From IMG/VR virus record IMGVR_UViG_3300042870_001966: a stretch of DNA of 64,000 nt, one strand, 5' to 3'. The stretch is from a virus (Duplodnaviria; Heunggongvirae; Uroviricota; Caudoviricetes). A program made the position numbers and the translations under genes. The notes below the pieces were generated by a model. It worked only from the letters and a program-made list of their open reading frames with translations. It was not told the DNA's origin and searched no databases. Of this stretch, positions 19,603 through 22,560 are shown one piece after another. Numbering within the stretch: position 1 is the first letter of the stretch; every line of letters begins with the position of its first letter.

Positions 19603-19678
19603 GGTGAGGTAGCTCAGATGGTAGAGCACAGGACTGAAAATCCTGGTGTCGGCGGTTCGATCCCGCCCCTCACCACCA
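19603..19678 (+). tRNA. tRNA-Phe(GAA)
   Basis: Cloverleaf fold; anticodon loop CTGAAAA; CCA encoded. Confidence 0.8.
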
Positions 19679-19756
19679 ACAAAAAAATGAATAAGAATAT
19701 GAAACGTAAACGCTAAAGGCCCAGTGACTCCCAGAGTTACAGGTCTAAATACACAG

Positions 19757-19830
19757 GTCTTCGTAGCTCAGTTGGTTAGAGCACCTCACTTTTAATGAGG
19801 GAGTCACAGGTTCGAGTCCTGTCGGGGACA
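19757..19830 (+). tRNA. tRNA-Lys(TTT)
   Basis: Anticodon loop CTTTTAA. Confidence 0.75.
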
Positions 19831-19836
19831 CTAAAC

Positions 19837-19913
19837 TGGAATATAGCTCAATTGGTTAGAGCATTCGCCTGATACGCGAAAGGTTATAGGTTCGATTCCT
19901 ATTATTCCAACCA
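19837..19913 (+). tRNA. tRNA-Ile(GAT)
   Basis: Anticodon loop CTGATAC; CCA encoded. Confidence 0.75.
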
Positions 19914-19918
19914 AACAT

Positions 19919-19996
19919 TGCGGGATGCGTAGAAAGCGGTTATCTCGTCAGTCTCATAAGCTGAAGTTCCCGGTTCGAGTCCGGGTCCCGCAACCA
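19919..19996 (+). tRNA. tRNA-Met or Ile2 (CAT), atypical D-arm
   Basis: Perfect acceptor TGCGGGA/TCCCGCA; anticodon loop CTCATAA; CCA encoded. Confidence 0.6.
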
Positions 19997-20005
19997 AAAG
20001 AATAC

Positions 20006-20076
20006 ACGGATGTGGTGCAATGGTAGCATGCGGGTCTCCAAAACCCTAGATGGGAGTTCGAATCTCTCCGACCGTG
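20006..20076 (+). tRNA. tRNA-Trp(CCA)
   Basis: Anticodon loop CTCCAAA. One acceptor mismatch. Confidence 0.6.
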
Positions 20077-20173
20077 CAAATCTTTCGAAAGAAAGTGACT
20101 AAATTAAACCTAATGTGGTATAGTAATCATATAAGTTTAACAAGAGTTCTTTGACTTATTGGAGATTGAAAAT

Positions 20174-20244
20174 TGTCCTGTGGTGTAATGGCAGCACGTC
20201 TGGTTTTGGTCCAGAAGATCGAGGTTCGAATCCTTGCGGGACAA
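20174..20244 (+). tRNA. tRNA-Gln(TTG)
   Basis: Anticodon loop TTTTGGT. Confidence 0.7.
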
Positions 20245-20249
20245 CATAT

Positions 20250-20321
20250 TGCGGGGTAGAGCAGTGGTAGCTCGTTGGGCTCATAACCCAAAGGTCGTCG
20301 GTTCGAATCCGGCCCCCGCTA
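20250..20321 (+). tRNA. initiator tRNA-fMet(CAT)
   Basis: Mismatched 1:72 pair. GGG/CCC anticodon stem. Near identity to the E. coli tRNA-fMet body. Confidence 0.8.
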
Positions 20322-20326
20322 CTAAT

Positions 20327-20432
20327 GATTAGATGGGCGTAATGCGGGATGGTACCCAAGTCCCGAACTCGAAAGAGGTAAGGTTGTCTACTCCGTCTTG
20401 CACGGTATCCGGTTCGAGTCCGGCTCTAATCA
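20327..20432 (+). tRNA. tRNA-like element, 106 nt, anticodon undetermined
   Basis: Perfect 7-bp acceptor GATTAGA/TCTAATC. Canonical T-arm TCCGG-TTCGAGT-CCGGC. The internal 72 nt do not fold as a standard D/anticodon arm. Confidence 0.4.
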
Positions 20433-20541
20433 CCCGGATCCATGCACGTCGAGCGCAAACCAATCGCTCTTCAGGTAGATTTGCATGGATAAACAACCCG
20501 TCACGGTATACCCACAGGGTAGGAGTGAACTGGAGAGAAAT

Positions 20542-20613
20542 GGTCCTGTAGTTAATCGGCTATAACGCCGCCCTGTCACGGCGGTATGCCGGGTTCGATT
20601 CCCGGTGGGACCG
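20542..20613 (+). tRNA. tRNA-Asp(GTC)
   Basis: Anticodon stem CCGCC/GGCGG, loop CTGTCAC. Confidence 0.8.
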
Positions 20614-20802
20614 CGAAAGTATATCAACAGAAGTCCGACTTGCACGGATGAAAGGAACCTTGGCTCCATGGGATTAGCTACCCAACCGGAGAGATATAAA
20701 TGACCCAAGGTACTCTGTTCAGGTCCCTGCTCTACTGTGCACAGTATCAGGTTATGGGGAACAAACCATAAGTAAAAACCGGAGCACGGTATACTTTTAT
20801 TT

Positions 20803-20874
20803 GGCCCGTTAGTCTATCGGTTAGGACACGCCCCTTTCACGGGTGAGAGACGAGTTCGATTCTCGTACGGGCTA
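20803..20874 (+). tRNA. tRNA-Glu(TTC)
   Basis: Loop CTTTCAC. Confidence 0.75.
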
Positions 20875-21020
20875 CTAAGAACAACGGTCTCTCCGGCCAA
20901 TGTGATGTCGACAATCACGGTCGGATCAAGAGTTCACCACCCTCAGCCTGGGCCCAGAGAAAACTCTGATGAAGCTGTTAAGATTGGAGCGAGACGGGTA
21001 CTCCAACGTTGTTCTTAAAT

Positions 21021-21097
21021 GGGCTGTTAGCTCAGTTGGCTAGAGCACCGCACTTGCACTGCGGGGGTCGAGAGTTCGAGTCTCTCACGGTCCACCA
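21021..21097 (+). tRNA. tRNA-Ala(TGC)
   Basis: Loop CTTGCAC; CCA encoded. Confidence 0.8.
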
Positions 21098-21102
21098 ACA
21101 TT

Positions 21103-21176
21103 GCCTCCTTAGCTCAGTTGGCCAGAGCGCCTCACTTGTAATGAGGATGTCGGCGGTTCGAATCCGTCAGGAGGCT
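21103..21176 (+). tRNA. tRNA-Thr(TGT)
   Basis: Perfect acceptor GCCTCCT/AGGAGGC; loop CTTGTAA. Confidence 0.8.
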
Positions 21177-21355
21177 CACATCGTATTAGGGTCGTGCCGC
21201 ATTTTGCCACGATACGAAATAGACTTGAGAGGATCAGAGGCGGCCGTGACTACCTCAAGTCGAAGTTAGATAGTGTCTCGGTACGCTCTGGTTAGTCGCA
21301 AGACTTTCTAACGACGAGGTCCCGGTGGGCAGAACGCGTCTGATCCCACCCACTT

Positions 21356-21431
21356 GCGGGAGTAGCTCAGTTGGTAGAGCGCAACCTTGCCAAGGTTGAG
21401 GTCGCCGGTTCGAACCCGGCCTCCCGCTCCA
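21356..21431 (+). tRNA. tRNA-Gly(GCC)
   Basis: Loop TTGCCAA; CCA encoded. Confidence 0.8.
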
Positions 21432-21434
21432 TAA

Positions 21435-21507
21435 GCGGATGTCGTATAATGGCTTATTACTCCAGCCTTCCAAGCTGGAGATGCGAGTTCGATTCTCGCC
21501 ATCCGCT
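21435..21507 (+). tRNA. tRNA-Gly(TCC)
   Basis: Loop CTTCCAA. Confidence 0.75.
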
Positions 21508-21588
21508 CGACCGGTGGCTCCCTTAATGGTTCGAGGCCGACCTCAAACATCGGTGATACGTCATACAGGGGGCGAAAGCGTATCAAAC

Positions 21589-21661
21589 AGTCCTTTAGCT
21601 CAGTTGGTAGAGCATCTGTTTTACATGCAGAGGGTCGTAGGTTCGAATCCTACAGGGACTA
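21589..21661 (+). tRNA. tRNA-Val(TAC)
   Basis: Loop TTTACAT. Confidence 0.75.
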
Positions 21662-21950
21662 CTATGAGCAAGAGATACTCAGTAAGATTGGTCGCATTCT
21701 TTAAAAAAGCGATGGTAGTGAAAAAGTCCTCGACCTTAATGGGGGATCGATTCGGGTAAACGTGAGCAAGACTCTGCCGCGCCGACGTAGAGAGTTGACA
21801 GGTTTTTATGTGGTAAGACACTAATGAAAAAGACTTATTGGGGGAGGACCGTATAGTCTAAGACGTCAATAAGGGATATGGTTCTCGAAACAGTCAGAGA
21901 AACCCGTTAAAATCCAGTCTTCGTACAAGTCTCAGTATGGAGCAAATTAT

Positions 21951-22027
21951 CGAGATGTTGGGGAGTCCGGTTACCCCGCCTGCTTTGGGAGCAGGAGAAC
22001 TCGCAGGTTCGAATCCTGCCATCTCGA
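21951..22027 (+). tRNA. tRNA-Pro(TGG)
   Basis: Loop TTTGGGA; 7-nt variable region. Confidence 0.65.
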
Positions 22028-22135
22028 CAAAAGAACCTTAGTAGAGGCTGACTCCACCAGCTAGGACGTAACGTTCAAGCCTAGCTGAAAGCACGCGCTT
22101 GCGCTGAAATGGTGGTCGAGGTTCTTTTATTTTAT

Positions 22136-22210
22136 TGGGTGTTAGCTCAGCGGTAGAGCTCTCGACTGTTAATCGAGTGGTCCCAGGTTCGAATCCTGGA
22201 CACCCAGCCA
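22136..22210 (+). tRNA. tRNA-Asn(GTT)
   Basis: Loop CTGTTAA; CCA encoded. Confidence 0.8.
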
Positions 22211-22348
22211 AGGTTGATTAGGGAATGATTGTGTCAATAGTTCGAGAGTGAATGCTGACTGACATAATCGGAGTTTGCAGGCATTCACCAGAGTAATGCT
22301 AATCGTAAAATGAGATGTCCACTGAACCATCTTCTCATTTCCTTACCT

Positions 22349-22435
22349 GCCGTAGCGCTGAAGTTGGAGAGTCAGGACAGACTGTAAATCTGTTGTCGTA
22401 AGGCTGAGTAGGTTCGAATCCTACCTGCGGCACCA
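22349..22435 (+). tRNA. tRNA-Tyr(GTA), type II
   Basis: AGACTGTAAATCTG anticodon arm identical to E. coli Tyr; CCA encoded. Confidence 0.75.
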
Positions 22436-22486
22436 AGTAGTTTTGAGGTGGGCGAATTCTACTCTAAAAAAATAATCCCTCCACCA

Positions 22487-22560
22487 GGACCTTTAGCTCA
22501 GTTGGTTAGAGCAGCGCACTCATAATGCGAAGGTCTCAGGTTCGAGCCCTGAATGGTCCA
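22487..22560 (+). tRNA. tRNA-Met or Ile2 (CAT)
   Basis: Loop CTCATAA; one acceptor mismatch. Confidence 0.65.

Follow-up and report, generated by a model that had tools for sequence, protein, structure and literature searches.

The 64,000-nucleotide stretch of DNA analyzed here (hereafter the window), a phage sequence of the class Caudoviricetes (IMG/VR record IMGVR_UViG_3300042870_001966), carries a long array of transfer RNA (tRNA) genes at 19603-22561 and further tRNA genes in three other places, and the question that occupies us is what such a collection could be for. We consider it probable that the phage brings its own decoding kit together with the enzymes to maintain it, and that the tRNAs are set in islands of separately folding, conserved RNAs. 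Three lines of evidence carry this reading: a set of tRNAs matched to nearly every codon of the window, a cassette of predicted tRNA-processing enzymes between the clusters, and gaps in the array that are occupied by RNA modules with covarying base pairs.

The tRNA set, its codons, and its predicted maintenance enzymes

ARAGORN called 26 tRNAs in the window, all on the + strand and in four places, and the Rfam tRNA model found the same 26 at 37.3-76.9 bits against a gathering score of 29 (E values of 3e-4 to 4e-15 for the whole window). We counted as canonical any RF00005 cloverleaf above 29 bits with a 7-nt anticodon loop, and 26 genes qualify; with two odd-shaped serine tRNAs and two tRNA-framed RNAs, the total comes to 30, and all 20 amino acids are covered. 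(Rfam's own total is 27, the extra being a match to its tRNA-Sec model at 42507-42589.) A first-pass annotation, made by a model from the sequence and its reading frames, had put the number at about 30 tRNA or tRNA-like genes in four clusters representing every amino acid, and both programs confirm it; the 18 ARAGORN calls at 19603-22561 fall in precisely the order, and with the anticodons, that it had given. All 26 are genuine tRNA genes by the measure of the gathering score. The functional-looking tRNAs number 28, with 24 different anticodons.

Read along the + strand, the main array consists of tRNA-Phe(GAA) (19603-19678), Lys(UUU) (19757-19831), Ile(GAU) (19837-19913), an elongator-type Met(CAU) (19919-19996 by Rfam; ARAGORN, with 19926-19996, has its start off), Trp(CCA) (20006-20077), Gln(UUG) (20174-20245), an initiator-type Met(CAU) (20250-20322), Asp(GUC) (20542-20614), Glu(UUC) (20803-20875), Ala(UGC) (21021-21097), Thr(UGU) (21103-21177), Gly(GCC) (21356-21431), Gly(UCC) (21435-21508), Val(UAC) (21589-21662), Pro(UGG) (21951-22028), Asn(GUU) (22136-22210), Tyr(GUA) (22349-22435), and an Ile2-type tRNA(CAU) (22487-22561). 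Upstream lies a type II tRNA-Ser(UGA) (16904-16991; 53.7 bits) with an encoded CCA and a canonical branch of seven acceptor and five T-stem pairs (7/5), the only model that it fits. A solitary tRNA-Leu(UAG), also with an encoded CCA, stands at 36465-36545. The last cluster holds tRNA-Cys(GCA) with U73 (42429-42499; 37.3 bits), His(GUG) (42606-42683), Leu(UAG) (42687-42763), Leu(UAA) (42770-42851), Arg(UCU) (42945-43019), and Arg(ACG) (43283-43356), along with the two odd-shaped serine tRNAs. The gap between the two tRNA-Arg genes, filled by a 76-aa open reading frame (ORF) with an ATG start (43043-43273, +), looks protein-coding, unlike the spacers of the main array. ARAGORN found no tmRNA in the window.

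How much of the phage's own coding could such a set read? Over 49 ORFs of the window (14,385 codons), the phage's tRNAs could read 83.8% of codons by Watson-Crick or standard wobble pairing, another 16.0% need four-way reading by U34, and CGG (0.1%) is the only codon without a reader. A and T make up 68% of third codon positions, and the A-ending codons that the phage prefers are those to which the U34 anticodons correspond. The layout is spare: a single U34 tRNA for each four-codon box and G34 or U34 tRNAs for the two-codon boxes, to which are added the initiator, the elongator Met, a likely Ile2 of the lysidine type, and an A34 Arg. Full decoding presumes four-way reading by U34, inosine at A34 of Arg(ACG), and lysidine at C34 of the Ile2-type tRNA; on those terms, the set would read essentially all of the phage's A/U-rich codons.

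A decoding kit would also have to be finished and kept in repair. Of the 26 canonical tRNAs, 10 have an encoded CCA and 16 lack one, and between the clusters, at 32807-35808, stand four + strand ORFs whose domains mark them as a probable tRNA maturation and repair cassette. The first (32807-33544; 245 aa) is a predicted tRNA nucleotidyltransferase of the CCA-adding type (PF01743 and PF12627; phrog_24229 over its full length at 181.6 bits), with partial matches to NCBIfam CCA-enzyme models that all fall below their cut-offs. Adjoining it is a predicted HD-type metal-dependent phosphohydrolase (33544-34098; phrog_990, 79 bits). Nucleotidyltransferase and HD domains are fused in the bacterial multifunctional CCA enzyme; in the window, they are separate genes. 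There follow a predicted ATP-dependent RNA ligase (34118-35320; PF09414 and PF21189; phrog_968, 200.6 bits; the DRB0094-type model TIGR02306 at 94.8 bits, below its cut-off) and a protein with a cREC_REC "cyclic-phosphate processing" domain (35335-35808; PF20274, 73.5 bits). None of the ORFs scanned was recognised as an aminoacyl-tRNA synthetase.

The nucleotidyltransferase, then, could add CCA to the 16 tRNAs that do not encode it, and the phosphohydrolase, ligase, and cyclic-phosphate protein could form a heal-and-seal set that would, in principle, mend tRNAs cut in the anticodon loop. The purpose of the whole is probably to let phage translation continue despite codon mismatch, despite shut-off or degradation of the host's tRNAs during infection, or despite cleavage by a defence nuclease. 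Because all but 0.1% of codons are readable and the tRNA enzymes are close at hand, we regard independence from the host tRNA pool, together with escape from tRNA-targeting defences, as plausible. That a viral tRNA can counter such a defence is documented: one neutralises the PARIS tRNA nuclease (PMC11464382).

There is a simpler account, in which the tRNAs do nothing more than compensate for codon usage: they would top up scarce host tRNAs and speed late translation, with no anti-defence role. The match between anticodons and preferred A-ending codons (GCA, GGA, CCA, UCA, GAA, AAA, CAA, AGA, and UUA) is what this account would lead one to expect, and tRNA number scales with genome size in huge phages (PMC7162821). 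However, topping up needs no reader for every codon box, no initiator, and no tRNAs for the rare codons of Cys and Trp, and the adjacent ligase, cyclic-phosphate, and HD genes point to the repair of damaged tRNAs. Between the upstream tRNA-Ser and the main array, moreover, an ORF at 17211-17909 (+) matches the Pfam family Tad6, a type I Thoeris inhibitor, at 78.8 bits; it appears, from this match, to be a counter-defence gene adjoining the tRNA island, so that the region would carry genes of that kind. As a full explanation, compensation alone seems to us rather unlikely, and it is in any case compatible with the other: the codon and defence readings are not mutually exclusive, and a self-maintained decoding kit would have room for both.

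Three tRNAs of the array have the anticodon CAU, and the first-pass annotation had seen in them the canonical bacterial trio of an initiator and two elongator or Ile2 candidates. The initiator stands on its identity marks. The tRNA at 20250-20322 has no Watson-Crick pair at 1:72, where it carries the mismatch U1xU72 (a mismatch that had been predicted), and it shows the other bacterial initiator features: G2:C71, C3:G70, A11:U24, the three G:C pairs G29-31:C39-41 of a GGG/CCC anticodon stem, and A73. The usual bacterial mismatch at this position is CxA. An Ile2 (lysidine) role is likely for the tRNA at 22487-22561 because its best match in E. coli, a gene with anticodon CAU that RefSeq names tRNA-Ile, can be aligned with it from end to end (79%); it also shares C4:G69 and C5:G68 with E. 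coli tRNA-Ile2. The third, at 19919-19996, has a normal acceptor stem, anticodon arm, and T-arm and an odd D-arm, and it is conserved in relatives. The trio as a whole we grade as plausible. The claim that tRNA-His carries an encoded G-1 proved correct: G at 42606 lies opposite C73, which is followed by CCA, as in bacterial-type tRNA-His.

Two genes of the last cluster had been called only "Ser-like," and they are indeed serine tRNAs, one of them with an unusual acceptor branch. Both fold unaided into cloverleaves with a 6-bp D-stem closed by a 3-4-nt loop, a long variable arm of 5 bp with a tetraloop, and G73. The first, at 42507-42590 (+), has the anticodon UGA, a D-stem loop of 4 nt, and no CCA; the second, at 42856-42943 (+), has the anticodon GCU, ends in G73-CCA one nucleotide before tRNA-Arg, and was called by neither ARAGORN nor the whole-window Rfam scan. 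In syntenic clusters of two related loci (L081 and L083), ARAGORN calls tRNA-Ser(UGA) and tRNA-Ser(GCU) in the same two slots. As an 8/4 structure—eight acceptor pairs and four T-stem pairs—the GCU gene is fully paired (8/8 and 4/4), whereas as 7/5 its T-stem reaches 4/5; its orthologs in L081 and L083 are likewise fully paired only as 8/4. The UGA gene fits both models, and as a control, three type II tRNAs of the window fit 7/5 only. For AGY serine codons, the GCU tRNA is the sole reader in the set.

The tRNA-Sec family (RF01852) scores the UGA gene at 47.9 bits (42507-42589; threshold 47), and we have rejected that identity: a tRNA-Sec should have a UCA anticodon reading UGA and, in bacteria, an 8/5 acceptor branch, whereas the anticodon here is UGA and an 8/5 model leaves two of five T pairs. 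(8/4) tRNA-Ser species with serine anticodons have been described among the clustered tRNA genes of uncultured phages (Mukai et al., NAR 2017, PMC5389517). Judged by its predicted fold, the GCU gene belongs to this known class of unusual tRNAs, and the UGA gene, equally compatible with 7/5, may belong to it. The shared features are, in the GCU gene, the 8-bp acceptor and the 4-bp T-stem and, in both genes, the long variable arm, G73 (the class allows G73 or U73), the serine anticodon, the long D-stem with its small loop, and the location in a phage cluster. The published phage clusters also contain an (8/4) tRNA-His without G-1; here, by contrast, the tRNA-His is an ordinary 7/5 molecule with G-1 and C73.

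RNA modules between the tRNAs

The main array was first described as an array of tRNAs, which it is; what that description missed is that roughly half of it is conserved structured RNA that is not tRNA. When each long spacer was compared by BLAST with related loci (here given L numbers), the spacers, which are GC-rich at about 50%, resolved into discrete modules, 75-99% conserved and reshuffled relative to the tRNAs, that reach within 1-12 nt of the flanking tRNA genes. The spacer between the initiator and tRNA-Asp, for example, is two modules, M1 and M2, that occur apart elsewhere and have a tRNA between them in L010. From their conservation and predicted pairing, the spacers appear to be RNA genes in their own right.

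The case is best made by the modules with compensatory changes, all on the + strand. M4 (20876-21020), a 145-nt multibranched RNA closed by a 10-bp terminal stem, occupies the entire gap between tRNA-Glu and tRNA-Ala; over 17 sequences, it has 41 predicted pairs, nine of them with compensatory changes, and a fold z of -2.96, and it matches nothing in Rfam. In its alignment, 97.7% of cells are paired, against 37-46% when the partners are slid, and none of 500 shuffles reaches its covariation score. The two-hairpin M5a (21178-21265; 12 sequences, 21 pairs, 9 compensatory) behaves likewise: again no shuffle of 500 reaches the score, and for M4 and M5a together about 98% of cells are paired versus 25-46% with slid partners. 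M8 (22029-22135) is a 107-nt RNA with an 11-bp terminal stem (nine sequences, 37 pairs, 9 compensatory; fold z of -2.65). M7 (21663-21950), the longest at 288 nt, has invariant cores around a variable insert (six sequences, 57 pairs, 9 compensatory).

M3 (20627-20790; 12 sequences, 44 pairs, 22 compensatory) has two domains, a 5' domain of about 97 nt and a 3' domain that is probably the freshwater-1 motif (RF02979) at 20716-20777. The motif scores 67.3 bits there, below its gathering score of 72, yet it covers the full model (1-62; E of 1e-14), and the M3 homolog in L012 passes at 72.4 bits; both freshwater-1 hairpins are kept with compensatory changes (alignment columns 100-163 in 12 sequences). 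The 5' domain is equally conserved and covarying, and the freshwater-1 motif would be only the 3' domain of an RNA of about 165 nt.

The remaining modules, also on the + strand, are M2 (20432-20541; 110 nt, 87-98% identical in seven unique homologs), which occurs without M1 in relatives, M5b (21266-21355; five homologs at 71-88%), the 80-nt M6 (21509-21588; five homologs at 80-95%), and the M9 spacer (22211-22348; one homolog only). M2 keeps 29 predicted pairs, two of them compensatory, and its coding test is ambiguous (11/8/5), which makes it the weakest RNA case.

Might the long spacers instead encode small proteins or be remnants of mobile elements? Most of the short modules do have at least one open frame, an ORF of 72 aa (20333-20551) spans M1 and M2, and homing endonuclease genes are common in phage tRNA clusters, segB of T4 among them. 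Yet the variable columns show no 3-nt periodicity (17/16/16, 28/26/30, 29/28/25, and 15/15/13), and the many compensatory double substitutions are backed, in M4 and M5a, by the shuffle and slide controls. The 72-aa ORF is not conserved because M1 and M2 are separate in relatives, and M7 has no frame open in any homolog and no codon periodicity. We regard the protein or mobile-element origin as very improbable.

In an Rfam search of 19400-22800 at E≤1, freshwater-1 was the sole family recognised among the modules. GOLLD and ROOL, two families of large RNAs, were absent from the window at gathering thresholds and from 19400-22800 at E≤1. The motif CUGAUGA in M4 raised the possibility of a hammerhead or other self-cleaving ribozyme, which we rejected: no ribozyme family matched at E≤1, and the GAA position, as judged by eye, reads an invariant GAG. 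In the island of L012, a GOLLD RNA (13041-13475; 241 bits) lies just upstream of a tRNA-Met, and that island also has an above-threshold freshwater-1 motif at 11270-11332.

Nearly every longer gap in the array, then, would be filled end to end by one of the conserved RNAs M1-M8, with two RNAs of the islands being tRNA-framed. The most likely route by which the modules would be released is tRNA punctuation: RNase P would cut where the following tRNA begins, and the preceding tRNA would be processed at its 3' end. The released modules would be small RNAs with base-paired ends, arising much as the stable RNAs of the T4 tRNA cluster arise.

RNAs in tRNA frames

One gene of the main array had been listed as an atypical tRNA. 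The element is real; it is not a decoder. In M1 (20327-20432, +), a 7-bp acceptor stem and a T-arm, with A73, enclose a non-tRNA core of about 65 nt with three hairpins, and M1 has neither a D-arm nor an anticodon arm—that is, it is a tRNA-framed RNA, scoring 16.5 bits with the Rfam tRNA model, where a canonical tRNA needs 29. Its core is 87-96% conserved in eight loci, and its acceptor stem covaries (GAUUAGA/UCUAAUC, AGCCAGA/UCUGGCU, and GAUUAGG/CCUAAUC). Our own covariance model of it, R1, scores 127-136 bits on true copies and also finds diverged relatives and a weak match at 36697-36820. A search of M1 for YrlA gave no match.

That weak match coincides with a second such RNA, TLE2 (36698-36818, +; 121 nt). 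TLE2 passes the gathering score of 29 with 34.5 bits in focused Rfam searches, only by skipping a 51-nt insert at the position of the anticodon arm; it is tRNA-like and not a tRNA. Its frame resembles that of tRNA-Leu: an acceptor stem AGUCAGG/CCUGACU, a D-arm GCGGAAUUGGUAGACGC, a T-arm, and A73, around a core of 71 nt. The D-arm is identical to that of the neighbouring tRNA-Leu; the acceptor stem and T-arm are its own. This frame recurs with unrelated cores in 11 other elements (including ones in L069, L096, L110, L117, L118, and L123), and over the 66 pairs of the 12 Leu-frame elements, the 5' frame is 86% identical and the 3' frame 92%, whereas the cores, which run from 21 to 135 nt, are 39% identical, against 40% when shuffled.

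A census for the closure of a T-arm by a 7-bp acceptor stem gives a sense of how common such elements are. In 1.9 Mb of sequence, it returned 615 closures, against 8 in reversed sequence; 528 of the 615 coincide with ARAGORN tRNAs, and 46 are unique and novel, mostly 99-122 nt long and located in tRNA slots. Both M1 and TLE2 were recovered. One closure, spanning 246 nt at 58503-58748 within a gene on the opposite strand, we put down to chance, the null being about 8 per 1.9 Mb and mostly long. In distant BLAST searches, neither M1 nor TLE2 had a counterpart among sequenced phages. Several unrelated framed elements have a GGUAAG/GUAAG motif 5-35 nt upstream of the T-stem (e.g., 20376-20384 and 36774-36782).

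TLE2 belongs to a small island of its own, which runs from a TATAAT-like box at about 36427 through tRNA-Leu, a conserved non-coding module (36556-36696, +; one homolog, L003 17381-17522, at 87% identity), and TLE2 to some 200 nt (36821-37025) with a terminator-like hairpin near 36985-37012. In L003, it is a copy of M1, and not TLE2, that occupies the slot following the corresponding module.

Are these elements perhaps only wreckage, tRNA pseudogenes in decay that insertions have broken up and that serve no function? TLE2 shares its D-arm exactly with tRNA-Leu, and its loop CUUAGCG resembles the tRNA-Leu anticodon loop CUUAGGA; the Leu-frame cores are unique, so no covariation backs them; and neither M1 nor TLE2 was called by ARAGORN or by Rfam in whole-window mode (TLE2 had escaped the first-pass annotation as well). 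Neutral decay, however, would erode the frames too, and it is the frames that are near constant across 12 elements and the cores that are at random level. In M1, the reverse is seen: the core is conserved and it is the acceptor stem that has changed, in compensatory fashion, which indicates selection. The framed elements also sit in regular tRNA slots on the tRNA strand, and rnaC of phage T4, a stable, expressed RNA, has the same build. We are doubtful of the pseudogene explanation, while granting it some weight.

If the framed RNAs are not wreckage, then what might they be? We offer, tentatively and as a possibility that we would not yet bet on, the idea that tRNA bodies serve these freshwater jumbo phages as a natural chassis for other RNAs and that the array is an operon with many kinds of RNA product. 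The Leu-like frame (acceptor, D-arm, T-arm, and A73) would be kept near constant while the anticodon and variable region is replaced by unrelated cores; in the M1 class, a fixed core would sit in a covarying frame. Roughly ten further structured RNAs, freed by tRNA punctuation, would be products of the same operon. The tRNA machinery could mature and protect the non-tRNA products and perhaps even aminoacylate them, and these products might serve to decoy tRNA-targeting defence nucleases or to regulate host translation.

Lineage and known systems

The window is probably part of the genome of an uncultured jumbo phage of freshwater bacteria. It holds genes for a topoisomerase II, a helicase, a DNA polymerase, a portal protein, ClpP, and a Lon-like protease, phage hallmarks among them, and the portal protein is closest (34-42%) to those of metagenomic huge phages (LR7565xx) and Lak megaphages. 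Related loci were gathered with ClpP, whose gene is just 3' of the main array, and the ORF at 40926-42257 as queries; ClpP led to hundreds of aquatic viral contigs at 80-95% identity and up to 253 kb in length, and the small ORF at 22624-23034, used in the same way, recovered no relatives. A metagenome scan added 28 loci, and pattern scans of IMG/VR with the cores of M4, M1, and M8 mostly found known contigs again. When the array was searched by megablast against some 50,000 phage records, it matched at single tRNAs only, and no relative at the nucleotide level appeared.

Among the relatives, the locus upstream of ClpP has from 0 to 21 tRNAs, and among close ones from 2 to 21. The array is a fast-evolving accessory region of this jumbo-phage lineage because the order and content of its tRNAs vary even between contigs with 95% identical ClpP. 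Seven related arrays (L096, L098, L110, L111, L117, L118, and L106) have tRNAs for Ile(UAU), Pro(CGG), Val(GAC), Leu(GAG), and what ARAGORN calls Phe(AAA); the window has none of these anticodons, and the anticodon repertoire therefore turns over rapidly within the lineage. Relatives also carry suppressor-type tRNAs (L010 6773-6850, L008 8354-8426, L007 605-677, and L125 1996-2068), with the anticodon UUA, which reads UAA, in the slot between M1 and M2 or with UCA, which reads UGA (ARAGORN's "SeC"). The window has no suppressor tRNA, and its stop codons are standard (TAA 41, TGA 6, and TAG 2). In L133, a 276-nt element (5773-6048, -) has a full tRNA acceptor stem, D-arm, and T-arm with an insert of about 200 nt at the anticodon region; it could represent a tRNA gene interrupted by a group I intron.

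One might also suspect that the array is a host chromosomal tRNA operon, recently captured by the phage or joined to it by misassembly. Its GC content, about 50% as against 33-43% across the rest of the window, is above the phage average, and individual tRNAs resemble bacterial ones. But raised GC is expected of structured RNA genes in an AT-rich genome, and the same array occurs with the same flanking phage genes (ClpP downstream) on many independent viral and metagenomic contigs of up to 253 kb. A scan of 185,579 species genomes with the freshwater-1 core returned, besides six matches at tRNA-free, high-GC loci that are consistent with chance, only a 2.9-kb phage-like fragment binned in a metagenome-assembled genome. 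To a host origin of this kind we give almost no credence.

Several findings do weigh against a self-maintained decoding kit set in RNA islands. The tRNA modifications that full decoding presumes would depend on modification enzymes of the host or on others. The RNA ligase and the CCA enzyme lie below the curated NCBIfam cut-offs and were assigned by Pfam and PHROGs. Some relatives with 95% identical ClpP have just two tRNAs at the locus, and the full set is therefore dispensable for the lineage. The species-genome scan gave no clue to the host. Among the modules, M2, M5b, M6, and M9 are conserved or unique sequence with little structural support. Finally, a terminator-like hairpin (19562-19597) lies directly upstream of the first tRNA of the main array, within which there is a single weak sigma-70-like promoter site (GTGACT-18-TATAGT, in the AT-rich spacer between tRNA-Trp and tRNA-Gln), and the transcription units are therefore not defined.

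How does the locus compare with what is known? The first-pass annotation had thought the tRNA set unusually complete for a phage, and this was overstated: the 56 tRNAs of Xanthomonas phage XacN1 span all 20 amino acids (PMC5852040), and as many as 67, along with tRNA repair genes, are known from metagenomic huge phages (PMC7162821). The set is a further example of a well-documented kind, ordinary for jumbo and huge phages, which likewise have clustered tRNAs for every amino acid and genes for tRNA modification or ligation. The difference is one of economy, with fewer tRNAs here (28) in a near-minimal set of one reader per codon box. So clean a set, with its predicted CCA-adding enzyme and heal-and-seal cassette, makes a good model in which to set codon adaptation against evasion of defences.

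The less ordinary part is the composite RNA island, with its undescribed structured RNAs and its tRNA-framed RNAs. The former include at least five new structured RNA families with strong covariation and no Rfam entry. Freshwater-1, a two-hairpin motif from freshwater metagenomes that the window copy matches over the full model, now appears as half of a larger RNA. The large RNAs GOLLD and ROOL are "often near tRNA islands" of phages (PMC12286853), and the likeness is in the placement of structured non-coding RNAs within such islands, L012 having its GOLLD inside one. However, GOLLD and ROOL are 400-800 nt long, and the modules of the window are 80-290 nt and of many different kinds.

For the constant Leu-type frame with unrelated cores, analogies come from elsewhere. 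Both in the engineered, artificial "tRNA scaffold" and in the tRNA-like/miRNA transcripts (TMERs) of murine gammaherpesvirus 68, a eukaryotic virus, a tRNA body is the chassis or processing handle for an unrelated RNA, and the framed RNAs look like such a chassis.

The closest likeness is to the tRNA cluster of T4, whose annotation includes two small stable RNAs, rnaC (species 1) and rnaD (species 2). These stand in line with tRNAs, as do the predicted non-tRNA RNAs of the window. In T4 rnaC, a non-tRNA core is enclosed by a 7-bp acceptor-like stem and a canonical T-arm, and this RNA is recovered by a relaxed closure scan; M1 and TLE2 share this build, the in-line location, and the closure. 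The differences are of scale and descent. T4 has eight tRNAs with two extra RNAs at one end of the cluster, whereas in the window some 12 extra RNAs alternate with 18 tRNAs; the two clusters share no sequence similarity, and the modules of the window are reshuffled among relatives. The tRNA-framed series links to these stable RNAs of T4, which have had no known function since the 1970s, and if tRNA bodies are indeed a natural chassis in these phages, the same idea would offer an explanation for T4 rnaC.

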